64,000 nucleotides of DNA, taken from NCBI GenBank assembly GCA_044225365.1, contig JBGAIQ010000009.1, forward strand, positions 96,462-160,461, in the 5' to 3' direction. The stretch comes from Planctomycetota bacterium. GTDB taxonomy: Bacteria > Planctomycetota > B15-G4 > JADJEK01. A model generated the notes under the pieces. That model did no database searches and was not told where the DNA came from. It saw only the letters and a program-made list of their open reading frames with translations. Of the stretch, positions 1-32,906 are shown piece after piece. Position 1 is the first letter of the stretch. Every line of letters starts with the position of its first letter. A program made the position numbers and the translations under genes.

Positions 1-941
1 ACGTACTCGAGCTTCGACTTCGAGGGCGTCGTGACCGTGGCCGTGCGAGCCGGCGTGGAGCGCAGTTCGAAGGCGCCCGCAGCCGTCGTGACGATCGTCG
101 CGCGCGGATCCGGATGTGCGATCGTGATCGGCGCATTGCGCGTCGACGCGATCCCCGCGAGTCGACCGTCGCTTCCGTACGTGAAGTCCATCGCGAAGCT
201 CGCGTCGGACGCCGCGATCCGGACGAGTCGCCCGTTCTCCACCGTGAGGCCATAGCCGAGATCGTCCGTGACCTCGACCCGCGCGCCCGTCGGCAGCGAC
301 TTCCATACCGCGCTCGTATCGGCCCCCTCGATTCGTACGCGACGCATCTCACCGTCGGTCGTCACGACCCCCGTCGAATGCAGCGCCGATCCGAGATTGC
401 GAACGGAGCACGCCTCGAACACCGCCCCCGCCCGAAGATCTTTCAATTCGAACTCGACGACGTGATCCTTGCGGCGAGCACGAGCGAGCGGCGCGCCTTC
501 GCGCGCCCGTTCGATCGTGAGCCACCAATCACCCTCGTTCTCCTCCGCGCGGCCACGGTACACGCCTTCACCGAAAGAGGGCTCGGCGACGAACTCGACG
601 AGGCGCCCATCGTCGGTGAGCAGTCGCGGCGACTCCCCCCATTCGAGGCGTTGACCGAACGAACGCGTCCATCCCGGTCCGAGTCCCTCGGGGTCGGGAG
701 CGTCGGCGGTCGACGTGTCGTTGTAGTAGAGGACGAAGGGAGTGCGCGGAAGCTGCGTGACGAAGATCATGCCCCCCGTCGCGGGTAGGAGGCAGATCCC
801 GGAGTCCTCGATTGGGTAAGCGACGTCGCTGCCGATCGGGAGCCCGACTCCGCGCGAAGCCGAGCCGAGGTGATCGGCGCCGGACGAGGCCGGAACCGTC
901 GAGCACCACAGTGCGAGTATGCAGGTAAGGAGTGACATCAT
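1..941 (-). CDS. RHS/YD-repeat family protein, N-terminal part (gene runs off the left edge of the window)
   Basis: Not in the ORF track because it has no stop inside the window. The reverse complement from ATG at 941 (second ATG at 938) is preceded by GGAGGAG (complement of 942-950). It reads MMSLLTCILALWCSTVPASSGA (signal-like) ... DPEGLGPGWTRSFGQRLE ... FAMDFTYGSDGRLAGIAS (YD-type repeat) and stays open to position 1. Plus-strand ORFs such as 114-788 are Arg-rich antisense artefacts. Confidence 0.7.
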   Translation of the reverse strand, partial: MMSLLTCILALWCSTVPASSGADHLGSASRGVGLPIGSDVAYPIEDSGICLLPATGGMIFVTQLPRTPFVLYYNDTSTADAPDPEGLGPGWTRSFGQRLEWGESPRLLTDDGRLVEFVAEPSFGEGVYRGRAEENEGDWWLTIERAREGAPLARARRKDHVVEFELKDLRAGAVFEACSVRNLGSALHSTGVVTTDGEMRRVRIEGADTSAVWKSLPTGARVEVTDDLGYGLTVENGRLVRIAASDASFAMDFTYGSDGRLAGIASTRNAPITIAHPDPRATIVTTAAGAFELRSTPARTATVTTPSKSKLEY

Positions 942-952
942 GGCTCCTCCTC

Positions 953-1771
953 TCAGTGTCCTTGCTTCGTCCGAGTGTGTCGGCACTCGCAAGGGCTCTC
1001 GGCCATGTCGAGGAACCCCGCCAAACGGTCCGCATGTTCCTTGATGTCGTTCATTGCCTTCTGCATCGTCGGATGCTCGATGGATGTCGCAGGAATCGGT
1101 TTACCGTCTCGGCCGGGCGCTGTCGGTCCGGTCAAGGAATAACCATCTCCAATGACGGTGACCCGGGTCAGCTTTGGATCCGATGTATCCGGCACGTCGT
1201 GCGTCGGCTGACTCAGCATTCCATTGTGGACGACATCCGCCCACAGCATGATCGTGACGCTGCCGAACTGGTACTGATTCCAGATCTCGTTGATGATTCG
1301 CTTCCTCTGCAGTTCCCATTTCTCCTTCGCGTCGACATACGCCGCCATCGAATCATGCGTCATGAACGACTTGATTCCAGCGAGCGAGTTGAGCGCGTTT
1401 TGTAGGAAACGCTCCACGAAGGAGTACAAGAGCACGGCGTGGACCATTTCGTGGAAGTAGGCGGACTCCGTGATTCCTTTTCCAACCACTCTCAGCGTCT
1501 TATCAGGAGCCATGACGCTGGAATTCAGGGCTGCGATCTGCACCTTGATGCTGAAATCGGAATCTCCCGAGTGGGAGGTCCTCGCGTGATCCGTCTCGGC
1601 CGGATAGCACGGCGGATCCATCACGGGATTCACGTAGACGTACTTCTCGGAGTAGATGTCCACGCTGTCGAGCTCGGTGACGCCAAAGACCAGGCCTCCC
1701 AGCGCCTCCGAGAAGGCGACGCCAGCCAACTTCGGTCGCTGGATCTCACCGAGCACCCGACCGACCGTGCA
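953..1771 (-). other. C-terminal variable tip of the RHS protein: 272-aa putative zinc-metallopeptidase (HExxH) toxin domain
   Basis: This is the sequence after DPSGL. HEMVH is encoded at 1439-1453 (checked by reverse complement: CAC GAA ATG GTC CAC). Local GC drops: hand counts give 32/60 G+C for lines 1441-1500 and 1501-1560, against 41/60 for 3001-3060 in the repeat core. Confidence 0.6.
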
Positions 1772-4700
1772 TAGGCCACTAGGATCGACGAAATCGACCG
1801 GATCGTCGCCGACCCGGCTGTATTCCTTCTGGAGCGAGCTGGCGCGAATCGGATCCGGCTCCACGAACCGGCAATCCTCCGGATCGTACATCCGAGCGCC
1901 GTTCCAGTAGATCCCGTGGTTCGCGTCCCAGCGCATGCCCTGGAACCGGTCGACGTTCCACGTCGCGCCGCTCGTTCCGAGCGAGCCCCCGAAGGGATAG
2001 TACTCGAACCCCGCGGTCGCGAGCGTCGACTCGTCGAGCGTGCGCACCACGCTGCCCGTGATCGGATCGGCGAGCACGACGTGATCGACGCCGGATCGCT
2101 CGGACCAGATCTTCTGATCGATGCCGGTACCGAAATCCTCCTCCTCGAGTACCCAGTTGTTGTAGGAAAGAACGGGCTCGCCGTTGGGATCGAGCGTGAA
2201 GTAACGAATCGTCGAGCCCGTCACGGCACCGAGGATCGAGCCGAACGGATCGCGATAGAACTGGGTGGTGACGGCGCCGGTCGTGAGGGTCGCGATGCGG
2301 CCCCAGGCATCGTAGGTGTAGGTGCGAGTCGAAGCGCCGTTCGATCGCGAGGTCACGCGGCCCGCTGCGTCGTACGCGTACGTCGTCGTTGCGCTACCCT
2401 TCTGTGCCGTGATCAGGCGACTCGCCTGGTCGTAGCCAAAGGTCGTCGTCACGCCGGACTGCGTGGAAGTCGCGATGCGGCCGGCGGCGTCGTAAGTCAG
2501 GCTGGAGGTATACGCATTCGGTCCGGTTCGCTTGCTCGACGCCAGCGCACCGAACGATGTGTAGGTGAACGTCTCGCTGTCGCCCGCCGCGTGATCGATT
2601 TGCGAGACGCGATCTTCGCCATTGTATTTGTAAACGCGGTGCACCAGCGTCGTGCTCGATCGCGCGGCCGAGTAGTCGTTCAGTCGACCGCATCCGTCGA
2701 ATGCGAATCTCTCGTCGACGAGGCCGCGGATCCTTCGAAGCACGATGCGACCGATCGAATCGTACGTAAAGCTCGTCATCGGTTCGGTGATGCTTCCCCG
2801 TACGAGGTCGATCGATGAGATTCGACTCATCGAATCGTAGGAATACGAGAATGCATCGCCGTTCGGAACGACTCGCGCGATGAGGCGCCCTGTCGAATCG
2901 TAGTAATACGAGAACACCTCCCCGAATCCATTGGAGAACGACGTGACCCGCCCCGACGCGTCGTAAGCGTACTGATACCAGGTCGTGCCTTCCTGGATCG
3001 CGGCGAGGCGATCGTGCGCGTCGTACGTGTAACTGCGCGTCGCACCACCGATGCTCGAGCTGGATTGCGTGAGCTTGCCCGAGGCGTCGTAGGCGAAGGA
3101 ATACGTGACACCACCGGGCTCGGTCTGACTCGTGAGTCGACCGTTCGCATCATGCGTGAGGGTGAACGTCTGCGTACCGTGGACGACCGTAGCGAGGTTG
3201 CCGAGCGCGTCGTAGGAATACGACCACGCGAGATCACCGCCGTTCTTCTTGTACGTGAGGCGGCCGAGGGAGTCGTACGCGTACGTCACGGCCGGCGCGC
3301 CGTCGGGGGTCGACGTGAGGGGCTGACCCGCGAGATTGTAGGTATACGAACACCCATACCCCGTCGGATGGACCATGCGCGAAAGTCGGCCGTTCACGTC
3401 GTACGAGTAGGTCGTCGTCAGCACGGTGCTCGTCGACTGGGCAACGGGGTATTTCTTCACGGATACGAGCCGACCGCCCGAATCGTAGGTCTGGTCGATC
3501 CGAATCTCGCTCGAGGTCCCCGGAGCGAGTTTCGATACGGTGAGTCGACCGACGACGTCGTAGGCGAAGGTCGCCACCAGCACGCCGTTCTGCCGGACTT
3601 CCGTGCAGCGCCCCGCCGCATCCCGCGTGTAGGTCGTGGTCACACCGCCGCAGGTCGTGGACACGAGATCCGTGTAGAGGAATTGCGACGTGCTCGGCAT
3701 GGACCCCGAGGCGGCGTGCGACGTCTCGAGCCCTGCGAGGTTGTAGGCGCGTTGCAGTACGACGGCGGGATCGGAGTCGTTCGCGAGGCCATCGCTGTTC
3801 GAATCGATCCAGGGGCCGGTCTCGGTGACGGGGCGGCCCAGCGCATCGCGAGCGACCACGGTCGTCCGACCTCCCGAATCCACCGCGCGCGTGAGTCGGT
3901 CGGCGGCATCGTAGTCGTAGGTCGCCGTGCCGAGACCGAAGTACGTGTGCGACGTCTCCTGGTTCCGCGCTCCGAACGCGACCGACTCCTGCGGAGTCAT
4001 CGCGCCATCGAAAGTGGTCGCCTGGCGATTCAGCGCGTCGAACTGCGCCGCCTCGAGCACCGACGTCTGGTTCGCGATCATGGTCTGAACGCCGGCGAGC
4101 GAGGCGGCGGGACCATGGCGCGAAACGACGTTGCCCGACGCGTCGTAGCGGTTGCCGATCCACGTGACATTGCTCGACGTCGTGCGGATTCCCTGCGCTT
4201 CGATCCGTCCGGCGGAGTCGTACGACGTGAATTCGCTGCCGAGCGCGGTCGAGACTCCCGGGCGCGTGACTTTGATCACGCGATGCTGCGAATCGTAGTC
4301 GAAGTACGTGACGAGACCGTTGGGATCGGTCTCCGAGATCTTGTCGTGCGTCGCGTTGTAGGACCGGAACGTGATCGCGCCGGCCTCATTGCGGATCTGG
4401 ACCAGGTCGCCGTTCGAGTCGTAAGTGAATTGGCGATATTGACCCGCGGTGATCATCGCCTGAACGTCGGTCTGCGTGAACGCGGGTCCCGCGCTCTGGA
4501 TCACGCGCCCCATCGAATCGAGCGTGTCGAGGGTGATGCCCCCGCGGAAATCGGTCGTCATCGTCCGATTGCCCGCGAGATACGCGAAGGTCCAGGTGTA
4601 CGTCTCGGTGCCATTCGTCGCGGTCCGTGACGCGAGGCGACCCATCGAATCGTAGGTGTACGACTCGGTCAGCGCCCCGCCCTGGCGACTGTGGCTCGTC

Positions 4701-4978
4701 ACTCGGTACTGCGCATCCCACGTCCAGTTCTCGATCTGCCCACCGGGATGCGTCGCCTGCTGCAGGAGCGAGTAGCCGCCGGAATACGTGTACGTGTAGT
4801 TGTGCGTCTGAGCGGCGAGTTCCGCCGGATTCGGCACCGGACCGTACACCGGTCCACGGTGCTGGGTCACGTTGCCGAAGGCGTCGTACTGGAAGTCCTC
4901 GTAGAGTGATTGGGCGCTGGCAATTCCCGCCAGCGACATGGCTGCGGCGAAGAGCGAGACGGGGAGACGGAGCGACAT
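953..4978 (-). CDS. RHS/YD-repeat protein with signal peptide and C-terminal variable toxin domain
   Basis: 1341-aa ORF. The N-terminus MSLRLPVSLFAAAMSLAGIASAQS is signal-like. It has many YD-type repeats (YTYDSMGRLASR, YDALGNLATV, YAYDASGRVTS, YTYDAWGRIATL). The core ends with RMYDPEDCRFVEPDP...DFVDPSGL, the Rhs core boundary (DPSGL encoded at 1772-1786). Confidence 0.9.
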   Translation of the reverse strand: MSLRLPVSLFAAAMSLAGIASAQSLYEDFQYDAFGNVTQHRGPVYGPVPNPAELAAQTHNYTYTYSGGYSLLQQATHPGGQIENWTWDAQYRVTSHSRQGGALTESYTYDSMGRLASRTATNGTETYTWTFAYLAGNRTMTTDFRGGITLDTLDSMGRVIQSAGPAFTQTDVQAMITAGQYRQFTYDSNGDLVQIRNEAGAITFRSYNATHDKISETDPNGLVTYFDYDSQHRVIKVTRPGVSTALGSEFTSYDSAGRIEAQGIRTTSSNVTWIGNRYDASGNVVSRHGPAASLAGVQTMIANQTSVLEAAQFDALNRQATTFDGAMTPQESVAFGARNQETSHTYFGLGTATYDYDAADRLTRAVDSGGRTTVVARDALGRPVTETGPWIDSNSDGLANDSDPAVVLQRAYNLAGLETSHAASGSMPSTSQFLYTDLVSTTCGGVTTTYTRDAAGRCTEVRQNGVLVATFAYDVVGRLTVSKLAPGTSSEIRIDQTYDSGGRLVSVKKYPVAQSTSTVLTTTYSYDVNGRLSRMVHPTGYGCSYTYNLAGQPLTSTPDGAPAVTYAYDSLGRLTYKKNGGDLAWSYSYDALGNLATVVHGTQTFTLTHDANGRLTSQTEPGGVTYSFAYDASGKLTQSSSSIGGATRSYTYDAHDRLAAIQEGTTWYQYAYDASGRVTSFSNGFGEVFSYYYDSTGRLIARVVPNGDAFSYSYDSMSRISSIDLVRGSITEPMTSFTYDSIGRIVLRRIRGLVDERFAFDGCGRLNDYSAARSSTTLVHRVYKYNGEDRVSQIDHAAGDSETFTYTSFGALASSKRTGPNAYTSSLTYDAAGRIATSTQSGVTTTFGYDQASRLITAQKGSATTTYAYDAAGRVTSRSNGASTRTYTYDAWGRIATLTTGAVTTQFYRDPFGSILGAVTGSTIRYFTLDPNGEPVLSYNNWVLEEEDFGTGIDQKIWSERSGVDHVVLADPITGSVVRTLDESTLATAGFEYYPFGGSLGTSGATWNVDRFQGMRWDANHGIYWNGARMYDPEDCRFVEPDPIRASSLQKEYSRVGDDPVDFVDPSGLCTVGRVLGEIQRPKLAGVAFSEALGGLVFGVTELDSVDIYSEKYVYVNPVMDPPCYPAETDHARTSHSGDSDFSIKVQIAALNSSVMAPDKTLRVVGKGITESAYFHEMVHAVLLYSFVERFLQNALNSLAGIKSFMTHDSMAAYVDAKEKWELQRKRIINEIWNQYQFGSVTIMLWADVVHNGMLSQPTHDVPDTSDPKLTRVTVIGDGYSLTGPTAPGRDGKPIPATSIEHPTMQKAMNDIKEHADRLAGFLDMAESPCECRHTRTKQGH

Positions 4979-5096
4979 CGGGAATCCTCGAAGCGGTGGC
5001 GATGGTCGGGACCACCTGGGACGAGCGAGGATGCCGCGGCGACGTCACGCGGGATTCACGACTTTTTTTCCGTCCGTGGACGCCGCGGCGAACCGA

Positions 5097-8000
5097 TCAG
5101 GAGCGAAGAACGCGATCGGCCTCGCGCACGACGGCTGCGTTGAACAGATCGCTGGTCAGGAACGCCTCGCGCCGCTGGGCGTCCTCGATTCCCGTACTGC
5201 GCTCGAGCACGAGGTCGCGTGCCCGCACGAGGAACTCGCGAGCCTCGTCCTCACGATCGATCGCCTTCAGGCAGCGATAGTGGATGAACGACAGCTCGGC
5301 CTGGCGCTTCCTCGCGGCCTGGTGCGTCTCCAGGAACTTCATGCCCTTCTTGCTGACGGCGAGGGCGAACTTGGACTTGCCCTGCGCGAGGTAGGCGACG
5401 GCGAGCGCGGCGTAGGCGTAGGCCTCCTGTCGCGCAAGCTCGTACTTCTGCGCGATCGCCACGCCCGAGGCGGCATACGTCGCGGCGACGGCGGGGTCGC
5501 GCTCCGGATTCTGATTCGCGATGAAGAGGAGGGCGAGGGCGACGTGCGTGTACACCTCGAACGGCGCATCCGAGGTCATCTTGAACAGATCGAGCGCGCG
5601 TTCGAGGCGGGCCCTTGCTTCGGCATGGCGACGCGCTCGCATCGCGAGTTCGCCAGAGACGTACAGCGCGCGAGCCTTCAACGCCTGATCGGAGTTGGCC
5701 TCGGCGATCGTGAGCGCCGCGTCCGCGGACTTCTCGGCGCGTTCGAGGTCGCCGAGCTCGCGATAGGTCCTTGCGAGCTGAAAGAACGCGCGGCCCCGAC
5801 CGCGTTGATCCTCGAGTCGCTCGAAGAGCGCGAGGGCCTGCTTCTGCGTCTCGAGGGCGAGCTCGAGACGATCCGTCGCGAGATAGAGCTGGCCGAAGAT
5901 GAGGAAGCCGTAGGCGCGTCCCAGCTCGTCCCCCGCCGCAGCGGCGAGTTCGTCGGCACGCTTCAATTCGTCGTCATAATCGGTCTGACCGAGCGTCTCG
6001 AGCACGGCGGCCTCGACGCGGAGCGAGCGCGCCTCGAGCGCGAGATCACCCGCACGTCGCGCCGCCTCGCGCGAACGCTCGCAATGCTGCAGCGCCGCGA
6101 ACACGCGGCCGGTGGACGAGTCGTACGCAGCGAGTTCGACCTCGACCTGCGCGATGCGTCGATCGTCGTTGGCCGTGAGCGCTACGCGGGCGGCGGAGCG
6201 CAGCAATTCGCCCTGCCGCGCGCGCTGTCCCAGATGACCGTAGACCGAAGCCGCGCCGAGGAAGAGGGCCACGCGATCCGAGGCGACGATCGTGGCATCG
6301 TCGTCGGAAACCTGCGACAGGTGGTCGAGCGCCTTGTCGGCGAGCCGCTGCGCTCGCTCGTGGAGGTTGCGGTCCTCGCAGAAGTCCACGGCACCGATCA
6401 GATACCTGGCGGCGCGCGAGTGCGCCTCCGCGAAGGAGAAGTGGATGCCGGCTTCGTAGTTCGCGCGCGTCGCGGCGTGCGGGTCGGTGGACGACCGCGC
6501 GTGGATCTGCGCGACCGTCAGGTGATATTCGCGACGCAGGGCGGGATCGATCCCGAGGTACACCCGTTCACGCAGCAAGTGATGATCGAAGCGGTAGGCG
6601 TCGTCGAACGATCGAACGAGGTGATAGCGCTGGGTCAGTCGCGAGAGAACCTCGGAGGCCTTGAGGAGGTCGAGCCCGAGTCCCTCGATGACCGGCTCGG
6701 GTTTGAATCGCGCGCCGAACACCGACGCGAATTCGAGGAAGCGCTTCGCTTCGGCATCGATGTCCTCGAGCCTTCGCGCGAGCAGGTCGAGCACCGATTT
6801 CGGCAACGGCAGGCGCTTCAGCTCGGCGGGCTTGATCGAGCGCAGCTTGCCGCGCCGTTCCAGGTCGTCGATCAGCGCGAACAGGAAGCCGGGATTGCCT
6901 TCGCTCGCTTCGTGGAGGCGCTTGCCGAGAGATTTCAGGAGCGCCGGCGGAACGCCGACGTCCCGCAGCACGGAGCGGACGGCGGTGTCGTCGAGCCGCT
7001 CGAGCGTGACGTGGAGCGCTTCCTTCAGCTCGAACAGCTTCTTGAAGAACGGCGCCGACGGCGGCTCGCCCGGCATCGTCTCGGCGAGTGCGCTCTCGCG
7101 GGCCGTGAGCACGATGGCGATCGGGAACACCGCGAGCGTCGAGGCGAGTGCGAGCAAGGCGCGGAGCGAACCGCGATCGGCCCACTGGATCTCCTCGATC
7201 ACGAGGAAGATCGGCGAGCGCACCGACAGCGTGCGCAGGACCTCCGCGTACAGCGCGGGGACGGCTTCCGGCGGCAGTTGCTTCGCTGCCGAAGAACCGG
7301 CGAGCGCGCTCGCGCCCGGCGCATTCGTCCCGCCGGATGCGACGCCCGCGCCGCCTTCACCGAGAACGAGGGAAGCGAAAGCGTCGGCGAAGACGCGGCG
7401 CTCGGGCAGGTTCTCGCGCAACTTCTCGGCGAGCACGCGCGTGCGATCGGCGCGCGGGACCGCGTCGACGCCGAGGGCCATCAGCAGCGCCTCGTTCAGT
7501 GCGTAGTACGGCGTCGCTGCCGCTTGATCGAGGAAGCGCGAGACGAGGACCTGCGCGCCGAGCGGCTCGATCTCCTCGGACTCGAGTGCGCTATCGATGA
7601 GGCGCGATTTGCCGATCCCGGTCTCGCCGGTGACGACGACGACCCGTCCGCTCCGCGCGACGGCGGCCGTGCGCAATGCGTCGACGAGCGCGCCGCGCGC
7701 GGCGTCCCGTCCGTAGACCCGAGTCGCACGACGCACGCGCAATCGTCGCCGCGAACGCGACAGGTGCGCCTCCATGGCTTCGCCCTCGACGTAGGCCTTC
7801 CACCAGTCCGATTCCTCGCGTTCCTCGAGGATGCGAAGGAGGCGCGATGCCGGCTGGAGACGCCGCGCCGGGTCTTTCTCGAGCGCCTGCGCGACCACCC
7901 GCTCGAAGAAGTACGAAACGTCGGGCGCGAACGCCGAGACGGGACGCGGGACGAGCCTCGTCTGATTCGCCATCGTCGACGGCAGATCGGGACCGTGGAA

Positions 8001-8762
8001 CGGATTGAATCCCGTGAGGCACTCGTAGGCGGTGACGCCGAGCGAGTAGAGGTCGGTCGCCTTGCCGATCGGCCCGCTCGCGATCTGCTCGGGCGACGAA
8101 TACGCGGCGCTGCCGACGAACGTGCCGGGCAGCGAGATCTCCGTCCCCGGCTCCACGAGCCGCGAGAGTCCGAGATCGACGATGTGGAGATGGTCCTCGG
8201 CGTCGAGGAACAGGTTCCCGGGTTTGATGTCCCGGTGCAGGATGTCGTGCTCGTGGAGCGCCGCGAGCGCCGCGACGCCCTGTCGATAGACGTGGAACGC
8301 TCGGCTCTCGCTCATCCTCCCGTCGTCGTCGAGGACCTTCGAGAGCGTGCGCCCTCGCAGATACTCCATGACGATGAAGTGGAGCGTCTCGCCGCCCACC
8401 TTCTCGCTGCCGACGTCGTAGGTCGCGACCACGTTCTCGTGCTTGATCGCGAGGCCGACCCCGGCTTCGCGTTTGAATCGCCGGAGGATGTCCTCGTCGG
8501 CCGCGAGGTGCGGATGCAGGATCTTGAGCGCGACCTCGACGCCCACGCGCAGACCCTTCTTCGCCTTCACCACCTCGGCGAGGAAGACCGTTCCCATGCC
8601 GCCCGCGCCAAGGCGCTTGACGACGCGGTAGTTCTTGATGGTCTTGCCCTCGAGATCGTTCACGCACGTACTTTCGTTGTCAGGATCGAAGCTGGCGATT
8701 ATAGTCCGTGGCAGCGTAGGGCAAGCGTAAGCGATTGCGAGCGCGCTTTTAACGCACAGCAA
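5097..8762 (-). CDS. Ser/Thr protein kinase fused to a P-loop NTPase (STAND-like) and TPR repeats
   Basis: Kinase motifs are LGAGGMGTVFLAEV, ALKIL, HRDIKPGNLFLD, DLGLSR and GSAAYSSPEQ. A P-loop (VVVTGETGIGKSRL) follows, then a long helical-repeat C-terminal half. The true start may be GTG at 8663 (VNDLEGKTIKNYRV), which leaves a 112-nt divergent intergenic region with cysS. Confidence 0.85.
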   Translation of the reverse strand: MLCVKSALAIAYACPTLPRTIIASFDPDNESTCVNDLEGKTIKNYRVVKRLGAGGMGTVFLAEVVKAKKGLRVGVEVALKILHPHLAADEDILRRFKREAGVGLAIKHENVVATYDVGSEKVGGETLHFIVMEYLRGRTLSKVLDDDGRMSESRAFHVYRQGVAALAALHEHDILHRDIKPGNLFLDAEDHLHIVDLGLSRLVEPGTEISLPGTFVGSAAYSSPEQIASGPIGKATDLYSLGVTAYECLTGFNPFHGPDLPSTMANQTRLVPRPVSAFAPDVSYFFERVVAQALEKDPARRLQPASRLLRILEEREESDWWKAYVEGEAMEAHLSRSRRRLRVRRATRVYGRDAARGALVDALRTAAVARSGRVVVVTGETGIGKSRLIDSALESEEIEPLGAQVLVSRFLDQAAATPYYALNEALLMALGVDAVPRADRTRVLAEKLRENLPERRVFADAFASLVLGEGGAGVASGGTNAPGASALAGSSAAKQLPPEAVPALYAEVLRTLSVRSPIFLVIEEIQWADRGSLRALLALASTLAVFPIAIVLTARESALAETMPGEPPSAPFFKKLFELKEALHVTLERLDDTAVRSVLRDVGVPPALLKSLGKRLHEASEGNPGFLFALIDDLERRGKLRSIKPAELKRLPLPKSVLDLLARRLEDIDAEAKRFLEFASVFGARFKPEPVIEGLGLDLLKASEVLSRLTQRYHLVRSFDDAYRFDHHLLRERVYLGIDPALRREYHLTVAQIHARSSTDPHAATRANYEAGIHFSFAEAHSRAARYLIGAVDFCEDRNLHERAQRLADKALDHLSQVSDDDATIVASDRVALFLGAASVYGHLGQRARQGELLRSAARVALTANDDRRIAQVEVELAAYDSSTGRVFAALQHCERSREAARRAGDLALEARSLRVEAAVLETLGQTDYDDELKRADELAAAAGDELGRAYGFLIFGQLYLATDRLELALETQKQALALFERLEDQRGRGRAFFQLARTYRELGDLERAEKSADAALTIAEANSDQALKARALYVSGELAMRARRHAEARARLERALDLFKMTSDAPFEVYTHVALALLFIANQNPERDPAVAATYAASGVAIAQKYELARQEAYAYAALAVAYLAQGKSKFALAVSKKGMKFLETHQAARKRQAELSFIHYRCLKAIDREDEAREFLVRARDLVLERSTGIEDAQRREAFLTSDLFNAAVVREADRVLRS

Positions 8763-8775
8763 ACGGCAAAACCCA

Positions 8776-10203
8776 GTGATCCGCTTCTACAACACACTTT
8801 CGCGTCAGATCGAGGAGTTCGTCCCGCAGGAGAAGGGCAAGGTCCGCATGTACAACTGCGGCCCGACCGTCTACTCCAACCCCCACATCGGGAACTACCG
8901 CGCCTATGCGTTCTGCGATCTCCTGCGCCGCGTGCTCGAGATGGCGGGTTACTCCGTCACCCAGATCATGAACATCACGGACGTCGGGCACCTGCGCGAC
9001 GAGCGCAACGACGCCGGCGACGACCGGATGGAAGCGGCCGCGCGCGCGGAGCGGGTCGATCCGCAAACGATCGCGAAGCGCTACACCGATGAGTTCTTCG
9101 CCGGTCTCGAACTGCTCGGCATTCGCCGAGCGCACGAGCATCCGCGCGCTTCCGACAACGTGAAGCAGATGATCGAGATCATCGAATCGTTGATCGCGAA
9201 GGGCTTCGCCTACGTCGTCGATCACGAGGTCTACTTCGACGTGCCGAAGTTCCACGGCTACGGCAAGCTCTCCGGCAACGTCGGCGAAGAGGTCGAAGCC
9301 GGCGCTGGCGAGCGCGTCGCCGCCTCGGTCCTCGCGAAGAAACACGACAAGCGCGACTTCGCGCTGTGGAAGCACGATCCCGCGCATCTCCAGCAATGGG
9401 ATTCACCGTGGGGCCGCGGATTCCCGGGCTGGCACATCGAATGCTCGGCGATGGCGCGCCGCTATCTCGGCGACACGCTCGACATCCACACCGGCGGCAT
9501 CGACAACATGTTCCCGCACCACGAGTGCGAGATCGCGCAGAGCGAGGCATTCACGGGCAAGCCGTTCGTGCGCTACTGGCTCCACGCGGCGCACCTCGTG
9601 CTCGAAGGCGAGAAGATGTCGAAGTCGCTCGGCAACGTCCTGTTGCCGAGCGACCTCGTGAAGGACGGCGTGCCGGCGCGCGCGATCCGGTTCTACTTGC
9701 AGTCGGTGCACTACCGGCAGCCGATGAACTTCACGCGCGAAGAGTTGAAAGCGAAGTCCGCCGCGCTCGAGCGACTCCTCAACTTCTACGACGACATGCG
9801 GCATCGCGAGAAGAGCGGGAGCGACGCGCCGGTCACGGATTCGTTCCGCGCGCTCGTCGACACGGCCGCCGCACGCTTCCGCGATTGCCTCTACGACGAC
9901 CTCAATTCGTCCGGCGCGCTCGGTGCGATCTTCGAGATGATGAACGCCGTGAACGCGGCGTCGCCCGGAAAGGTCGGCGCCGCCCTCGTCACGAAGTTCC
10001 TGCGCGAGGCCGACTCGATCCTCGGCGTGCTGCCAATGGACACGCTCGATCTCGAATCGGAGATCGAAGCGAAGATCGCGCAGCGCGAAGCGGCGCGGAA
10101 GGCTCGCGATTTCAAGCTCTCCGACTCGATCCGCGACGAACTGCTCGCGCGCGGCATCACGCTGCTCGACACACCGCAAGGCGTGCGTTGGCGCAAATCT
10201 TGA
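8776..10203 (+). CDS. cysS: cysteine--tRNA ligase
   Basis: GTG start. Motifs are [18 protein letters not shown] (HIGH-type) and KMSKSLGN (KMSKS), with the expected overall class I CysRS layout. Confidence 0.95.
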
Positions 10204-10215
10204 GCGTCGTGCGCC

Positions 10216-11007
10216 TCACGGCGCGCGGCGTCTCAGCTCCGACTCGAACGCGGCGCGGTGACTTCGACTGAGCGTCACCTGTTCGCCCGATGAGAGTTCG
10301 ATGCGAGCATCGCCCGCCGGCATCTTGGTGATCGTGACCACCGCGCCAACGCGGACGAGCGCCGAACGGTGCACGCGGACGAATCCAGAGGCGGCGAGCT
10401 CGCGTTCGGCTTGCGCGAGCGTCCGTCGCTCGAGGAGCGCTTCTCCCTTGCGATGCACCATCACGTAGTTCGAACGAGCCTCGATCCACTCGATCTCTTC
10501 GAGCGGGACGAGCACGATTCGACCGCGTTGCCGCACGATGAAGTTCGTTCGCCTGCGCGTCGCGGTCGCGTCGACGAGACGCTTCAGGTCCTGCTCGCGC
10601 GAGTGCGCTTCGTCACCGCCATCGCCGAACGCCGGTAGGGCACGCTTTGCGCGATCGAGCGCTCGCAGGAGTCGCTCACGATCGAACGGCTTCAGCAGGT
10701 AATCGAGCGCGTGGACGTCGAACGCCTTGAGCGCGTACCGATCGTACGCCGTCACGAAGATCACGACAGGAGGAGTGCCCTCGATTCGCGACAGCACCTC
10801 GAATCCATCGATTCCGGGCATCTGGACGTCCAGCAGTACCAGGTCCGGTCGTCTTTCCTCGATCCACTCCAGTGCCTCGATCCCGTCCTTTGCCTCCCCC
10901 ACGAGCTCGAATTCGGGCAGCGTCGCCAGGTCGTCGACGAGTCCGCGGCGTGCGATCGGCTCGTCCTCCGCGATGAGCACGGTGATGCGACGCCGCGCCG
11001 TCGTCAT
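10216..11007 (-). CDS. LytTR-family two-component response regulator
   Basis: The start MTTARRRITVLIAEDEP at 11007 was verified as CAT at 11005-11007. Receiver motif LLDVQMPGIDG, and a C-terminal LytTR region (IEARSNYVMVH ... GFVRVHRSALV). The 627-aa ORF in the track is an upstream read-through. The start overlaps the kinase stop by 4 nt. Confidence 0.9.
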   Translation of the reverse strand: MTTARRRITVLIAEDEPIARRGLVDDLATLPEFELVGEAKDGIEALEWIEERRPDLVLLDVQMPGIDGFEVLSRIEGTPPVVIFVTAYDRYALKAFDVHALDYLLKPFDRERLLRALDRAKRALPAFGDGGDEAHSREQDLKRLVDATATRRRTNFIVRQRGRIVLVPLEEIEWIEARSNYVMVHRKGEALLERRTLAQAERELAASGFVRVHRSALVRVGAVVTITKMPAGDARIELSSGEQVTLSRSHRAAFESELRRRAP

Positions 11008-27032: not shown

Positions 27033-27742
27033 CAGGGCTGCTTGCTCTTGTTCCGCGTCCGGTAGTACTGCAACAGGAGCTCTCGATAGCGGTCCGGGAA
27101 CTCGTTCTGCGAGAGCTTCTGGAACATCTCCTGGACCTTCGGCGGCAGGACGCCCCAGCGGCCGGCGACGTTCTCGCGCTGGTACTTCTCCTTCTCCGAC
27201 GGCGGATCGACGCCATCCGCCTTCTGCTGATCCGGCTTGCTCTTGTCCGGCCCACCATCCTTCGGCTGGCCCGATTTCTCCTCGGGCTTCTGCTTGCCCT
27301 CGCCCTTGTCCTTCTCGCCTTGCTGCTTCAGCTTGTCGACCTCGGGATCCTTGCCCCGCTCGTCCTGCTGTTTCTGCTGGGGAGAGTTCTTGGGATCGGG
27401 CTCGCCCGACCCCTTGCCGCCGCTGTTGGACTGCCGCTTCGCCATGCGGACGAGTTCCTCGATGTCCGTCACGGCCTGCGACTGCTTGGATTGGATGTCC
27501 TTCAGCAGCTTGTCGAGATCGGCTTTCACCTGCTCGATCCTCGCGGCGGCATCCTTGGGCGCATCCTTCGCAGCCTGCAACAGCAGCTCGTCGATCTCGC
27601 CCATCTCCTTACGGATCTTGGCTTGGAGCTCCTTCGCCTTGATCTCGTCGGCTTGTCCCCCGTCCTGCGCGACCGCGCGCTGCGCGCTCACGCCCGTGAG
27701 GATCGCCGCGACGCAGAGGAATCGCTGGATGCGCGTGTTCAT
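27032..27742 (-). CDS. secreted Lys/Gln/Glu-rich protein with conserved-looking C-terminal WGxLPP...YRELLLQYYR motif
   Basis: MNTRIQRFLCVAAILTGVSAQRAVAQ is signal-like. The middle is low-complexity KQ-rich. The C-terminus reads RWGVLPPKVQEMFQKLSQNEFPDRYRELLLQYYR. An ATGA overlap links it to the upstream gene. Confidence 0.6.
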   Translation of the reverse strand: MNTRIQRFLCVAAILTGVSAQRAVAQDGGQADEIKAKELQAKIRKEMGEIDELLLQAAKDAPKDAAARIEQVKADLDKLLKDIQSKQSQAVTDIEELVRMAKRQSNSGGKGSGEPDPKNSPQQKQQDERGKDPEVDKLKQQGEKDKGEGKQKPEEKSGQPKDGGPDKSKPDQQKADGVDPPSEKEKYQRENVAGRWGVLPPKVQEMFQKLSQNEFPDRYRELLLQYYRTRNKSKQP

Positions 27743-30525
27743 TTGCCACCCGGGCCCTTCTCGTCCTTCACTTCGACCGGCGGCCCCTGCGAGTCGTCGA
27801 TCATGCCGCGGAAGAGTTTCGTGATCTCGGAGTGCTGTAGTCCGAGGCGGGTCAGGCGGTCACGCGAAATCGCGTCGAGACCACCCTCCGCATTGGCGCC
27901 CTGGAGCCGCATGAAGACGTCGAGACGCTTCATCATGCTCTCCTCCATTCGCTTCAACATGAGCAACTCGGCGACGGGCGGGATCAAGGGCTGCTTCTGT
28001 TGCTGCTGCGGCGAATTCCCGTTCTGGCCGTCCGGCGGCTGGCCCTCCTCGCCCTCCTTCGGCTTGAGCTTCGCCTGCTTGCGGCGCTCGACTTCTTCAT
28101 CGAGGGTCGCGAGAAGCGTGTCGTAGCGATCGAGGATGTCGCGCGCGATCGACTGCGTGAAGTCGTCGGTGCGGTAGGGAGCGGTCCCGAGCAGTTCGGT
28201 CACTCGATCGAAATCGCCGTCGTTCTGCTCGAGCGCGAACGTGAAGACCGTCGCTCCATCCTCGCGCAGCTTCGACACGACCTCCTGATTCTGCACCTTC
28301 AGTTCTCGCGACTTCTGCGCGAGCTTCTTCGACGTATTCTGTCCGACTCGCGACAGCTTGCCCTTGCTCTGGCGCTCGAGTTCGAGCTCCTCGGTCTTGG
28401 CTACGACCTCACCCTGGCCCGTACGAAGGAGGGTCAACTGCTCCTTCACCTTGAAGAGCAACTCCTCCTGGCGAAGGTTCTGGTACTTGTCCTTCTCCTG
28501 CTTCAGTTCCTGCTCGGCCTTCTTCAAGAACTTCTCGGCTTCTTCCTGGCGCGGGGTTGCTTCCTCGCCCTGCTCCTTCTTGAGGCTCGATGCCGCCTGA
28601 TCCATCTTCGATGCGGCGGCGGAGAGCGACTGCTCGCGTTCGGGCTTCTTCTCGTCGCGGATACGATCCATCAGCTCTTTCAGCTTCTTCTCGAGCTCCC
28701 GCTGACGGCTCTCGAGGTCGTCGTACTTCTGCTGCTGATCCGCGGCCGAAGGGGAGTCCTTCGCGGACTGCTCGGCTTCCGACTGCTGCTGGTCGAGCTC
28801 CTGCGAGGCCTTCTCGAGTTGTTCACCCGCCTCGCTCTGGCTCTTCGCTGCTTTCTCCTGCTGGCCGCTGCGCATCGATTGCGCCGCCTGCTGCATCGAC
28901 TGCGCCGCCGACTCCACGGCCTTCGAGGCTCCCGACGGCGAATCCTTCTTCATGGCCGCGTCGAGGCGGGAGAGCGTCTTCGCGAGAGCCTCGGCCTGCT
29001 GGCTCGCGTACTCCTGCTTCGCGGCGAGGGAGTCGCTCCGTTCCTGCGCAGCCTTCTCGGCACCGTCGATCGCGTTGCGCGCCTCCTTCATCTTCTCGAG
29101 CGCATCGCGTTGCGCCGCGGCCGCGCCTTCGAGGTCGGGCTTCTCCATCTCGGAACCGGCTTCGTTCGCCGCTTGCGCGCTCTGCTCGAGCGCCGCCGCC
29201 GCGTCGCTCGCTCGCTTCTGCGCCGCTTGGTTTCGTTCGGCGGCCTGCGGATCGCCCGCACTCTTCGAATCGCGTGAGTCCTGCGTCGGCAACTTCTCCA
29301 CCCGGGAAGCAGCTTCTGCGAGCTTCTTCGCTTCGTCACCGAGTTCGCGTTGCTGGTCGGCCGCCTTCGCGTCGGTCGCCGACTTCGAGAGCGCCTTGTC
29401 GAGCTGCGCCTTCGCGGCATCGACGTTCTCGTTCTCGGCGTTCGCGAGCTGCGCCGCCGTGGACGCGTCGCCGTTCTTCTCGGCGTCGCGCGCCGCCTTC
29501 ATCCGCTCCGAAGCACTCGCGAGTGCTTTGGCGAGGGCTTCGCGGGCGGTTGCGATCTCGGCGGCGTTCGCCGGATCCTTCGCGCCGTTCTCGCCGTTCT
29601 TTGCGTCGGCCGCGGTCGCCTCCTGTGACAACGCGTCCTTCGCCGCCGCGAGTTGTTCGGCAACCTTCTTCATCGCGTCGGCGTCGCCCGCGGCCTTCGA
29701 GTCGTCAGATGCGTCGGCCTTGGACTTCGGGGAGCCGTCGGCGGAGGCTGCCTCGGCCTTCTTGGCAAGGTCCTTCGCGAGAGCCTTCTGGGCTTCGATC
29801 GCGGCCTGTGCAGCGAGGAATCCGGGAGCCGCCCGCTCGAGCGAGTTCTCGGTCGCTGCGAGCGCGGCATTCTGCTTCGCGATCAGGTTCTCCAACTGGT
29901 GCTTCAGAGCGGCGAGTGCCGAGTCCTTCGACTGCGACTCGCTCGTGTTCTCCTTCGCCAGCTTCTGTTCGTTCTCCTTCAGGTCCTTCAACTGACTCTT
30001 CGCCTGCTCGGCGAGAGCCTTCGGATTCGTCGCCAGAACGGTCGTCTCGTTCGTCAGCTTCTGCTGCTCGCTCCGCACCTGCGCAATGTCGCGGACCGCT
30101 TGTTCGAGCTTCTTGGCTTCGGCGTCGAGCGAATCGAAGTCCGTTCGATCGAGGAGGATCGCGTACACGGACTCGAGATCCTTGAGCAGGTCCTCCTGCT
30201 CCTTCACCGAGGCGAACTCCTGGCGGTCGAGACTCGACCCGATCTTCTCGATCGTTCGGGTCAGCTCGCGCTTCTTGATCTCGGCGATCGCATTGTCGAG
30301 CAGGTCGGCGCTGTGCTGCTTTCCCTCCGCCCGCAGCCGCTTCGACAGCGACTCCATGTTCTTCTTCGTCGACTCGATGCGGCTCTTGAGGTTCTGCTGC
30401 TCCTGCGAGATGCGTTTGACGTCGGTCGCGGCGTCGGTCTCATCGCTCGCCCACGAGCGTGCGAACGGCAGTGCACAGAGCGACAGCGAGAGGAGACACG
30501 GAGCGAAGTGGAATCGGCTTCTCAT
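27739..30525 (-). CDS. 928-aa secreted Ala/Lys/Glu/Gln-rich coiled-coil protein
   Basis: Start MRSRFHFAPCLLSLSLCALPFARSWA at 30525 (CAT at 30523-30525). Nearly the entire length has heptad-like AKE/Q-rich composition. The C-terminus has LIPPVAELLMLKRMEESMMKRLDVF. Confidence 0.65.
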   Translation of the reverse strand: MRSRFHFAPCLLSLSLCALPFARSWASDETDAATDVKRISQEQQNLKSRIESTKKNMESLSKRLRAEGKQHSADLLDNAIAEIKKRELTRTIEKIGSSLDRQEFASVKEQEDLLKDLESVYAILLDRTDFDSLDAEAKKLEQAVRDIAQVRSEQQKLTNETTVLATNPKALAEQAKSQLKDLKENEQKLAKENTSESQSKDSALAALKHQLENLIAKQNAALAATENSLERAAPGFLAAQAAIEAQKALAKDLAKKAEAASADGSPKSKADASDDSKAAGDADAMKKVAEQLAAAKDALSQEATAADAKNGENGAKDPANAAEIATAREALAKALASASERMKAARDAEKNGDASTAAQLANAENENVDAAKAQLDKALSKSATDAKAADQQRELGDEAKKLAEAASRVEKLPTQDSRDSKSAGDPQAAERNQAAQKRASDAAAALEQSAQAANEAGSEMEKPDLEGAAAAQRDALEKMKEARNAIDGAEKAAQERSDSLAAKQEYASQQAEALAKTLSRLDAAMKKDSPSGASKAVESAAQSMQQAAQSMRSGQQEKAAKSQSEAGEQLEKASQELDQQQSEAEQSAKDSPSAADQQQKYDDLESRQRELEKKLKELMDRIRDEKKPEREQSLSAAASKMDQAASSLKKEQGEEATPRQEEAEKFLKKAEQELKQEKDKYQNLRQEELLFKVKEQLTLLRTGQGEVVAKTEELELERQSKGKLSRVGQNTSKKLAQKSRELKVQNQEVVSKLREDGATVFTFALEQNDGDFDRVTELLGTAPYRTDDFTQSIARDILDRYDTLLATLDEEVERRKQAKLKPKEGEEGQPPDGQNGNSPQQQQKQPLIPPVAELLMLKRMEESMMKRLDVFMRLQGANAEGGLDAISRDRLTRLGLQHSEITKLFRGMIDDSQGPPVEVKDEKGPGGK

Positions 30526-30569
30526 GGTGTGCCTTACGACCGATTGCGCGCGGCGGGGTTCCATCGTTG

Positions 30570-32906
30570 TCATTCTCTCTTCAGCGACTGCTTGGTGCGC
30601 TGATTGAGCGACCGTTGATCCTCGACCAGATTGCGAAACGTCGCAACGATCTCTTGAAAACTCTCCCACTCATCGAGGCGGGCGATCAAGGCGTCGAGCC
30701 GTTCGAGCGCCCGTTTCTCCTCCTCGAGGGCTTGCCGCAAGGCCAAGGGCCGCTGCGCAGGATCGACGGCGAGCCGTGCATCGGACAGCGCTTTCGCGGC
30801 CGCCGGCGAATGCAGCTCGGCGACGTCGATCACGCAATGGATCATCTCGAAGATGCGACCGAGGATCTCGAGTCGACCGTACGCACTCGCGGCGTTCGCT
30901 TCGACGAGCGGTCGCCACAGCTTCGGATCGAACCCGTCCAATTGGGAGCTGCCGCGCTTCTTCTCGAGCATCACCGCGATCAATCCTTCGACGCCCGAAC
31001 TCGTGTCGAGCCGATTGAAGAGGTACTCCTCGAAGATCTCCGCGAACTCTCGGCACTGCTTCAGCGACCGTGCGGTCACCTGGTTCTGGCCCACCTCGAG
31101 CGTGGCGACGTCATCGGCCGTCGCGCCGGTCACCCCTTCGGCCTGGTCGAACTCCTTCAGGATCACTTCGAGTCGCTCGATCTTCTCCTGCTGGAGAGCG
31201 CGCAAGGAGCCGACCTCCTCCTTGGTGCGAGTCTGACGCTCCGCCAGGAGTCGCTGTTTCTCGCCGGGCGCGACGATGTCGACGCGCCGCTCCTCGATCG
31301 CCGTCTCGTTGCCGCCGGTCGAGGGCTTGCCGTCCTTGCCAAGGACGATGCCGTCGAAATTGTCCTTGGCCGCGACGCGATAGACGAGCGACTCCCCCGC
31401 CGCCATCGCGCGCGGCCCGCCTTCGTGCTCGAACACCTTCTGCTTGAGGTCGAGGTGCTCGTAGACGAGGACGCGACGCGATTCGTCCGGACCCTTGCCG
31501 ATCGGGAAGTCGATCTTCAGCGGGGTCGCACCGCCAAACGGCTTCATCTCGATCGCGAGGCTCGTGAGTCCGTAATCGTCGTCGGCGGCGATCCGCAACG
31601 GAACGATGCCGTTCGGTGTCACGTCGACGTCGGCGCGGCCGGGCTCGAGGACTCGCACGGTCGGACCGCGATCCTTGACGGCGAGGACCGAGTAGGTCGG
31701 GGGTTCGAGATTCTTGAACCCGATGTCCGAGACCAGCTCGATGGAATAGGCGCACGACTGCGTGATGTCGAACGACGCTCGCAGCTTCCGCGAATTCGAA
31801 TCGGCGACGAGTAGAAGCGGCAGTGCCGCGATCCCGCTGTCGAAGACGAGGCGACCGGCGGCCACCGCATCGGCGGTCTGGACGTCGATCGTGACGTGTG
31901 TCCCGACGAGTCCTTCCACGTCGCCTCGTGGTTCGACCCGCGGTCCGAGACCGGTGTAGGCCGGGAACTGGAGCTGCGACGTGACGCTCGCGACCGCGGG
32001 CGGCGTGAAGATCTCGACTTCGACTTCGCGGCCGCCGCCATCATCGTCGCCGCCGACCGGTCGGAACGTGAAGGGCGCGCGCACCGATCGGAACCGGCCC
32101 GCCCACTCACCATTGCCCGTCGACGACAGGGCGATCTTCGAATCCCCGCTCTCGCGCGACTCGGTCCGGACCTCGACGAGCTCGGGGTTCTCGCCGTTCG
32201 CCGTCACTGCGACCGGCAGACTCGCGCCACGAGCGATGCGGACGCGAATCGGGCGCTTCTCGTTCGAGGAGTCCTTCGCGTCGTATTCCACGACGTAGTG
32301 CGTGCCGTGCTCGGGGAACTTCACCGCGAGCATCGTGCGTTGCGGCCATCGTGCGCTCCCGCCGAGTAGGCGGCGGAAGAAGACGTCGGCGAGCGACGAC
32401 TGCGTCGCCACGAACGTGATGACGCCGAGGACGAGCACGGCCGCCGCCGCGCCGAGGCGCTGCAGGTGCCGATACTCGAAGATCGTCGAAAGGGGCAGGG
32501 TGGCCCGGATCGCCGAAGTCTCGCGCCGCAAGTCGGCGACGAGCTCGGGCGACACGTTGCGCTGCGGATCGATCGCCTCGCCCTCGAGTTCGAGGACCGC
32601 GAGCAGACGGCCGTCGAACTGCGGGAAGCGCCGCTCGATCGCACACGCGACATCGCGCTCGGTCGGCCGCTTCTTCAGGGGGTAGACGATGCCGCGATAT
32701 ACCTGCACGGCGAGGCCGGCGACGACGACGAGCAGCAGCACGATGCGAACCGGCGCGGGCAGGGCGAGCGACCGATCGAGGACGTAGAGGGCGGCGAGCC
32801 CGCAGCATACGAAGGCGACGACGCGCGCGATTCCATACAGCAGCGCGAGCTTGAGCCAGCGGCCCGCGAGACGCGAGAATTCGGCGCGCAGTTCGTTCAG
32901 GTCCAT
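30570..32906 (-). CDS. 778-aa membrane protein (N-terminal TM hairpins, large ectodomain, C-terminal helical region); DUF4175-like by recollection
   Basis: Hydrophobic segments are WLKLALLYGIARVVAFVCCGLAALYVL, VRIVLLLVVVAGLAVQVY and LGAAAAVLVLGVITFVAT. A beta-rich middle and a helical C-terminus follow. The family name comes from memory of similar architectures and was not searched. Confidence 0.55.
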   Translation of the reverse strand: MDLNELRAEFSRLAGRWLKLALLYGIARVVAFVCCGLAALYVLDRSLALPAPVRIVLLLVVVAGLAVQVYRGIVYPLKKRPTERDVACAIERRFPQFDGRLLAVLELEGEAIDPQRNVSPELVADLRRETSAIRATLPLSTIFEYRHLQRLGAAAAVLVLGVITFVATQSSLADVFFRRLLGGSARWPQRTMLAVKFPEHGTHYVVEYDAKDSSNEKRPIRVRIARGASLPVAVTANGENPELVEVRTESRESGDSKIALSSTGNGEWAGRFRSVRAPFTFRPVGGDDDGGGREVEVEIFTPPAVASVTSQLQFPAYTGLGPRVEPRGDVEGLVGTHVTIDVQTADAVAAGRLVFDSGIAALPLLLVADSNSRKLRASFDITQSCAYSIELVSDIGFKNLEPPTYSVLAVKDRGPTVRVLEPGRADVDVTPNGIVPLRIAADDDYGLTSLAIEMKPFGGATPLKIDFPIGKGPDESRRVLVYEHLDLKQKVFEHEGGPRAMAAGESLVYRVAAKDNFDGIVLGKDGKPSTGGNETAIEERRVDIVAPGEKQRLLAERQTRTKEEVGSLRALQQEKIERLEVILKEFDQAEGVTGATADDVATLEVGQNQVTARSLKQCREFAEIFEEYLFNRLDTSSGVEGLIAVMLEKKRGSSQLDGFDPKLWRPLVEANAASAYGRLEILGRIFEMIHCVIDVAELHSPAAAKALSDARLAVDPAQRPLALRQALEEEKRALERLDALIARLDEWESFQEIVATFRNLVEDQRSLNQRTKQSLKRE

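Follow-up and report, generated by a model that had tools for sequence, protein, structure and literature searches.

The plug capping the barrel's N-terminal end in Tse5, a rearrangement hotspot (RHS) effector of a type VI secretion system (T6SS), is the DUF6531 domain, as stated in the cryo-electron microscopy study of Tse5 (PMC10684867). The cork of RhsA is the same plug domain, which is also homologous to a domain of the BC components of toxin complex (Tc) toxins, and the T6SS Rhs proteins cleave themselves into pieces that stay associated (PMC8765631). The motif of the aspartyl protease in Tse5 is DPXGX19DPXG (PMC10684867). How the Rhs cocoon opens for the release of its toxin is an unresolved question in the field, and mechanical removal of the seal has been proposed for the T6SS Rhs effectors (PMC8765631). 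Here we describe a two-gene locus at the left end of a 64,000-nucleotide (nt) stretch of a Planctomycetota bacterium (assembly GCA_044225365.1, contig JBGAIQ010000009.1, positions 96,462 to 160,461; this whole stretch is hereafter called the window). Its gene 1 encodes an RHS toxin with tyrosine-aspartate (YD) repeats and its gene 2 a short partner, and similarity to DUF6531 was found in gene 2 but not in gene 1. We give an even chance to the reading that the two genes encode one RHS toxin container which is split over two separately exported proteins, with the plug supplied in trans.

The features of the locus are the following, with lengths in amino acids (aa) or nucleotides.

953..4978, minus strand: gene 1, the RHS/YD-repeat toxin, 1341 aa and a TGA stop (open reading frame (ORF) list and translation).
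4913..4978, minus strand: signal-peptide-like N-terminus, gene 1 aa 1-22, MSLRLPVSLFAAAMSLAGIASA ahead of Q (reading and hydropathy).
2003..4912, minus strand: YD-repeat shell, gene 1 aa 23-992, without a DUF6531 plug (Pfam, hhalign).
1772..2002, minus strand: Rhs-associated core, predicted C-terminal plug and aspartyl autoprotease, gene 1 aa 993-1069 (TIGR03696).
1844-1855, minus strand: DPIR, gene 1 aa 1042-1045 (motif reading).
1772-1786, minus strand: DPSGL, gene 1 aa 1065-1069 (motif reading).
956..1771, minus strand: C-terminal cargo domain, gene 1 aa 1070-1341, 272 aa, an orphan family.
1439-1453, minus strand: HEMVH (HExxH), gene 1 aa 1176-1180, invariant in the cargo family.
942..952, minus strand: spacer GAGGAGGAGCC, 11 nt, with the Shine-Dalgarno-like GGAGGAG at 950-944.
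1..941, minus strand: gene 2, 313 of its 388 codons and 2 bases of the next codon in the window.
876-941, minus strand: hydrophobic N-terminus of gene 2 (direct reading).
591..737, minus strand: DUF6531-like plug core, gene 2 aa 69-117, FVLYYNDTST...GLGPGWTRSFGQRLEW...TDDGRLVEF (Pfam below cut-off, hhalign).

By direct reading, gene 1 starts at the ATG at 4978 and stops at the TGA at 955-953, while ATGATG at 941-936 opens gene 2, whose frame leaves the window at position 1. The initial annotation had described this junction in the same way, and its gene 1 stop at 953-955, GGAGGAG, gene 2 ATG at 941 and gap of 11 nt were all confirmed. The gap has no room for an ORF. No terminator-like site was found between the genes in a terminator scan (the promoter and terminator scans were otherwise uninformative), and the short spacer with its Shine-Dalgarno sequence suggests that gene 2 is translationally coupled to gene 1.

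On its profile matches and motifs, gene 1 is a genuine RHS protein with a predicted signal peptide, a putative autoprotease motif and a C-terminal tip, as the initial annotation had proposed for a tip at residues 1070-1341. It matched RHS_repeat (PF05593) of Pfam at an E-value (E) of 6.9e-74 in 13 stretches and the YD repeats TIGR01643 of NCBIfam at 2.1e-54, and in PDB the solved T6SS Rhs proteins and teneurins, with a best E of 1.7e-39. The Rhs_assc_core model TIGR03696 spans aa 993-1069 (E 6.1e-15). The spacer between DPIR and DPSGL is 19 residues, equal to that of the Tse5 motif, and as the motif of the core protease is intact, autoproteolysis of gene 1 may be expected. Direct reading of the N-terminus, MSLRLPVSLFAAAMSLAGIASA followed at once by QSLYEDFQYDAFGN, shows a YD hairpin immediately after the Sec-like signal peptide, the best 11-aa Kyte-Doolittle mean of which is 2.07. 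Since gene 2 also begins with a hydrophobic segment (best 11-aa mean above 2 for both products), the Sec-like N-termini noted earlier on the two proteins hold up, and Sec-type export of both products is plausible. The non-self (extracellular or eukaryotic) target that the initial annotation suggested is speculative.

In gene 1, Pfam gave no match to DUF6531 at E of 0.01 or below, and when hhalign compared nine bona fide DUF6531 regions with the 160 N-terminal aa of the gene 1 family, the YD part of those regions alone was matched. Pfam likewise found no PAAR domain, FN-plug, NHL or wall-binding domain in gene 1, where TEN_YD-shell matched weakly and below its cut-off, and neither gene matched a prePAAR or VgrG-binding N-terminus in Pfam or NCBIfam. 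To place this architecture among other RHS loci, we used as background 80 unrelated metagenomic RHS loci, which were retrieved by scanning metagenomes with the conserved N-terminus of gene 1 (~30% identity); the scan yielded these generic loci and no further member of the family. They contain 45 ORFs with DUF6531, and as 44 of the 45 are at least 710 aa long, fusion of plug and shell is the norm. The length from plug to core correlated with that of the cargo (Spearman 0.59, p = 0.006, n = 20). One of the background loci (L011) carries DUF6531 in a 542-aa ORF (2437-4065) upstream of the RHS match (5907-6299), which could come from a frameshift or be a further case of plug and shell on separate genes, here in the usual gene order.

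Gene 2 carries what resembles the missing plug. The 313 residues visible in the window retrieved P0001, a 100% identical protein with a full length of 388 aa, which is encoded on an NCBI contig of 161 kb and also at 11-1177 on the Logan contig L002 (run SRR28480385); gene 2 ends 75 codons left of the window edge. Neither an Rhs core nor a toxin tip was found in the complete 388-aa product, which on these grounds we take to be a short partner protein and not an RHS toxin. In its C-terminal half it matched generic YD repeats in Rhs proteins of solved structure, with a best E of 8.9e-8. Further towards the N-terminus, the Pfam model of DUF6531 (PF20148) matched at E 1.4e-3 with 19.4 bits against a cut-off of 24.1 bits, and hhalign of the gene 2 family with the nine bona fide DUF6531 regions gave a probability of 95.7% and E 8.7e-9 over aa 69-115 (47 columns), pairing FVLYYNDTST..GLGPGWTRSFGQRLEW..TDDG with the DUF6531 consensus s..R.YNS....G.fG.GW.h.Y...L....dG. 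Matches of the gene 2 profile hidden Markov model to the background set, though sub-threshold, fall in large canonical RHS proteins at a site immediately ahead of their first YD repeat, and at these sites Pfam places a true DUF6531 in nine of the ten canonical RHS proteins checked. The N-domain of gene 2 alone, searched with HMMER against the canonical RHS ORFs, gave nothing significant; the predicted relationship to DUF6531 is significant at the level of profile-profile comparison alone. The AlphaFold2 model of gene 2, built from a two-row alignment that left out the L003 row, was unusable, with a predicted local distance difference test (pLDDT) score of 39. No relatives of gene 2 or of its alignment were found in species-representative genomes, and word-index searches with gene 2 or its profile gave no new proteins among the matches listed.

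The relatives of the locus were identified through the cargo domain. This domain matched nothing in Pfam, the Tox-MPTase families included, or among the PDB sequences, either singly or as a profile, and a word-index protein search with it listed no matches. HMMER, run exhaustively against 1.84 billion representative proteins, found seven matches. Two of them are true relatives, P0002 of 1332 aa (E 7.9e-40) and P0004 of 735 aa (E 3.1e-12), with cargo domains 39% and 27% identical to that of gene 1. Four others (P0003, P0005, P0007 and P0008) were rejected as repetitive proteins in which one short stretch was matched many times: the cargo stretch QYQFGSVTIMLWADVVH matches the unit TNQFGTVNLVVWADLCH, which is reiterated in repetitive proteins of public assemblies, and this repetition inflates the whole-sequence E-values to 1e-24. 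The remaining match, P0006, was discarded as a weak one (E 1.9e-5, 28% identity) to a repeat-rich protein of 2112 aa. By this search the cargo is a new and very rare family, with three members among the 1.84 billion representative proteins.

HExxH, PCYPxxTDH, GI[KR]SxxTH and a C-terminal CECxH are invariant in all three cargo domains. The domain is probably a zincin-like metallopeptidase, for which H1176, E1177 and H1180 would form the candidate active site and the invariant His at cargo-domain positions 139 and 182 and the CECxH motif are candidate third metal ligands. In the AlphaFold2 model, made from the single sequence and unusable as a structure (pLDDT 35), two strands precede a long helix, and HExxH lies close to where this helix begins; the strand-strand-helix order fits a zincin but proves nothing. 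Foldseek gave no match with this low-confidence model.

In both relatives the RHS gene is followed by a homologue of gene 2. On contig L003 the 1332-aa RHS gene (5748-9746) is followed, after a 16-nt gap with GGAGG, by a 370-aa homologue (9763-10875), and on L004 the RHS gene (559-4632) is followed after 5 nt by one of 472 aa (4638-6056). The RHS gene of L004 has a single in-frame TAG at 2383-2385 (between ARDT and GRHS), at which gene callers split it into products of 608 aa and 735 aa in the same frame; the stop may stem from an error in sequencing, or the gene may have become a pseudogene recently or be genuinely split. Gene 1 aligns colinearly with the two RHS proteins over the whole mature length, N-terminus to final residues, with 50% and ~34% identity. 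Both relatives have an equivalent N-terminus that ends right before the conserved mature start Q-S/Q-L/I-Y, and both keep the DPxx-x19-DPxG spacing, so that each of the three loci has an intact protease motif in the core. Conservation of gene 1 is highest in its first 100-150 residues, counted with the signal peptide (68-70% and 40-56% identity, against ~50% and 34% overall).

The gene 2 homologues, 39% (370 aa) and 26% (472 aa) identical to gene 2, have a hydrophobic start and end at the same YD hairpin, RE[FI]D..GR....Y..DGS, ~10-25 residues before the stop. The most conserved and invariant positions in the alignment are those of the plug core and the last YD hairpins. In the homologue on L004, the most distant one, the hydrophobic segment is followed by ~90 additional N-terminal aa that the other two do not have (columns 20-100 of alignment A1). 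No flanking genes common to the related loci were found, and because the pairing is kept while the flanking genes differ, the RHS gene and gene 2 are a conserved two-gene cassette. As the frame of gene 2 has stayed open with the same ends at 26-39% identity, gene 2 appears to be under selection and not a remnant, and as the short form itself is conserved, it is more readily understood as a functional short protein than as a truncation.

These observations can be combined into the following scheme. Both products would leave the cytoplasm via Sec. Gene 1 would fold into a YD barrel of ~970 aa with a C-terminal aspartyl-protease plug, and the cargo, cut off after Leu1069, would be retained inside the shell. 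The plug and hairpins of gene 2 would then cap or extend the open N-terminal end of this shell, and a lid held non-covalently could double as the point of cargo release. Self-protection without a dedicated immunity gene might come from export and encapsulation, or from a target that is absent from the producer. The sequences show the gene structures, the motifs, the conserved pairing and a similarity to DUF6531 in gene 2 and not in gene 1; what we infer here is that the proteins are exported, that gene 1 cleaves itself, that the two physically assemble and that the cargo acts as a peptidase, and the target is likewise inferred. Gene 2 is proposed as the supplier of the plug because gene 1 is without DUF6531 and gene 2 has a DUF6531-like core, and an interface between the two fits the finding that the N-terminus of gene 1 and the plug core and last hairpins of gene 2 are best conserved.

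Several points weigh against a split container. Three members make up the family, each of them taken from a metagenome assembly, and the RHS gene of one has an in-frame stop; the Pfam match to DUF6531 is below the curated cut-off and occurs in one of the three gene 2 homologues. As the relatives were found via the cargo, the pairing in all three loci does not tell whether gene 2 partners the shell or the cargo, the latter meaning immunity. Structural support is absent, given the pLDDT of both AlphaFold2 models. The gene 1 shell (~970 aa) already equals the whole Tse5 barrel in length, and extra hairpins are perhaps unneeded; besides, the order of C-terminal piece then N-terminal piece is the reverse of tcB-tcC. 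The length trend of the background set predicts ~1270 aa, with gene 1 alone at 1052 and both genes at 1399, and is not decisive. In a test of colinearity, where the N-terminus of gene 1 would fall ~340 aa past the plug in fused RHS proteins, the offsets of the best hits were too scattered to use.

The absence of a small immunity gene after gene 1, which the initial annotation had pointed out, was borne out here and in both relatives, and it leads to the first alternative, in which gene 2 itself is an exported periplasmic immunity protein or inhibitor of the HExxH cargo, recruited from an RHS N-terminal fragment. Gene 2 does occupy the immunity position, tightly coupled downstream of the toxin tip where no alternative conserved small ORF is available, accompanies the cargo family in all three loci and has a putative export signal as periplasmic immunity proteins do, and with identities of 39% and 26% it has diverged more like the cargo (39% and 27%) than like the shell (~50% and 34%). 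At 370-472 aa, however, its family is far bigger than usual immunity proteins, it matched no immunity family of Pfam, and it is homologous to RHS structural parts, plug and YD hairpins, which are precisely those that gene 1 lacks; an immunity role would leave the missing plug of gene 1 unexplained and is less parsimonious than a structural one. Base composition points the same way. The cargo segment (956-1771) has a GC content of 57.8% and 0.75 at third codon positions (GC3), the shell (2003-4912) has 63.7% and gene 2 (3-941) 67.1%, and because gene 2 is host-like while the cargo is not, the pair is unlike a tip-immunity cassette whose parts move together. All three shells carry the same cargo family, colinear end to end, and since the relatives were found via the cargo, shells with other tips would have been invisible; among these shells the cargo is not swapped, and the logic of a toxin/immunity cassette is not evident. 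We regard an immunity function as unlikely. No small immunity ORF conserved after gene 2 was found in the three loci.

Past the end of gene 2, at a distance of 152 nt, is a basic ORF of 107 aa (L002:1330-1653, ~390-710 nt left of the window edge). It has a gene-like GC3 of 0.80 and AGGAG upstream; no signal peptide, Pfam match or counterpart in L003 or L004 was found for it.

Gene 2 could also act outside the cocoon, as a surface tether, as a helper in receptor binding or outer-membrane crossing or as a folding chaperone. It is conserved, coupled and putatively exported, the ~90-aa additional segment of the L004 homologue hints at modular additions, and nothing in the window accounts for how a periplasmic RHS protein would cross an outer membrane. 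Pfam, on the other hand, detected no adhesin, beta-barrel, propeller or chaperone family in gene 2, no lipobox was detected, and its recognisable parts are plug-like and YD-like, both of which are parts of the shell in all solved Rhs structures. Such an accessory role thus seems improbable to us.

That gene 2 is the decaying, functionless 5' remnant of a second RHS gene, left by duplication and deletion, is very improbable: RHS loci are rearrangement hotspots where fragments are frequent, and the RHS gene of L004 does have its in-frame TAG, but gene 2 persists as an intact ORF of similar length in the three loci, ending at one shared point and starting in a conserved context at identities of 26-39%, over which a neutral remnant would not have kept its frame, and its codon bias is gene-like (GC3 0.80). 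The proposal of the initial annotation, a tandem of two complete RHS genes, each exported via Sec and toxic on its own, with the tip of the second left of the window, finds some likeness in the export-like N-terminus and YD-like repeats of gene 2 but can practically be set aside, as gene 2 stops after 388 aa with a weak DUF6531 and a few YD hairpins and no core or tip, is a conserved partner of 370-472 aa in all three loci, and is followed on L002 by the 107-aa ORF and then a HEAT/VWA gene.

The surroundings of the cassette are those of an ordinary chromosome of ~65% GC. Upstream of gene 1, and ending 118 nt from it, is the following gene.

5097-8663, minus strand: Ser/Thr kinase with AAA_16 and TPR, 1188 aa.

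Beyond it follow CysS, NusA, IF-2, DUF503, RbfA, ThiG, a MoxR/DUF58/BatA/VWA cluster, enolase, SodC and other genes. A second, unrelated kinase is located ~5.7 kb downstream of gene 2 (L002:6870-8900), and both flanking kinases are not conserved in the related loci. The reported lack of PAAR, VgrG or other T6SS markers agrees with our Pfam scans, in which no PAAR, VgrG, Hcp or other T6SS family was found among the ~45 ORFs with coding-like codon bias of the 64-kb window, and no TcA-like gene was found in the window or on L002-L004. Exact look-up placed the upstream kinase and gene 2 on Logan contigs, and for gene 1 and CysS it gave no encoding contig. Two Logan contigs of run SRR28480385, from the same organism, break within the locus: L001 inside the gene 1 shell at window position 2792, and L002 begins at 951, in the spacer just past the gene 1 stop codon. 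These breaks could be due to repeats, to the GAGGAGGAG run or to strain variation of the toxin tip. Apart from these, the AT skew falls to -0.42 between 27000 and 31000 over the minus-strand ORFs 27739-30669 and 30570-32906, which gave weak matches to DUF4175.

In its fullest form, the split container would be an RHS cocoon that is exported via Sec without a T6SS and closed afterwards by its plug, a polypeptide of its own that would serve as a removable, non-covalent lid and release a new metalloprotease-like HExxH cargo with no need for an immunity protein. This would be an undescribed format, a minimal bacterial counterpart of TcB/TcC or an Rhs cork with its lid in trans; we hold this form tentatively, at somewhat less than an even chance. 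If it is true, opening and closing could be tested with two purified components, as the plug is exported separately, and a two-piece cocoon would not be unique to Tc toxins. The cassette is a compact two-gene unit for which reconstitution is possible. For annotation, the cassette is a caution against taking every short ORF with YD repeats or DUF6531 that follows an RHS gene for a fragment, another toxin or an immunity gene.

Among known systems, the cargo is comparable to the Tox-MPTase zincin toxin domains in having HExxH in a predicted helix after beta-strands and in its position as the C-terminal toxin of an RHS protein, but it has no sequence match to any Pfam family or PDB chain and possesses an extra conserved C-terminal CECxH. 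WapA of Bacillota and the bacterial teneurin-like proteins (PMC13018210) share with gene 1 the signal-peptide YD shell, the C-terminal toxin and independence from the T6SS. Unlike the present cassette, they are single polypeptides with fused plug and anchoring domains (FN-plug and NHL in the teneurin-like proteins), and nearly all have a small immunity gene directly downstream (PMC13018210).

The T6SS Rhs effectors Tse5 of P. aeruginosa, RhsA of P. protegens and Rhs1 of Photorhabdus laumondii resemble gene 1 in their YD barrel, in a C-terminal plug formed by an aspartyl protease whose two DPxG motifs are separated by 19 residues, and in the encapsulated C-terminal toxin. Cleavage divides them into an N-terminal piece, a shell and a toxin, which remain joined non-covalently. 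The cassette differs from them in having no PAAR, prePAAR or VgrG-binding N-terminus and no T6SS nearby, with predicted Sec-type signal peptides instead, and in that the DUF6531-like plug is on a separate product, a small immunity gene is absent and the cargo is conserved together with the shell.

The BC components of the Tc toxins (TcB/TcC; TcdB2-TccC3 and YenBC) form a cocoon from two polypeptides, of which the N-terminal piece has a domain homologous to DUF6531 and the C-terminal piece has the Rhs core and a toxin of ~30 kDa, with no immunity gene (PMC8765631). Foldseek on the poor gene 2 model matched sheets of Rhs, teneurin and OspA locally and with low TM, and 6suq and 6sue are also among the weak local matches; we do not use these as evidence. 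In comparison with Tc BC, the gene order here is reversed, the N-terminal piece is 388 aa long against ~1470 aa and no beta-propeller was detected in it, TcA is absent from the window and the related loci, and both pieces have predicted signal peptides, which are absent from Tc proteins. With these differences, the cassette may be likened loosely to the two-polypeptide cocoon of TcB/TcC, which is the closest precedent for the way in which gene 1 and gene 2 would assemble.

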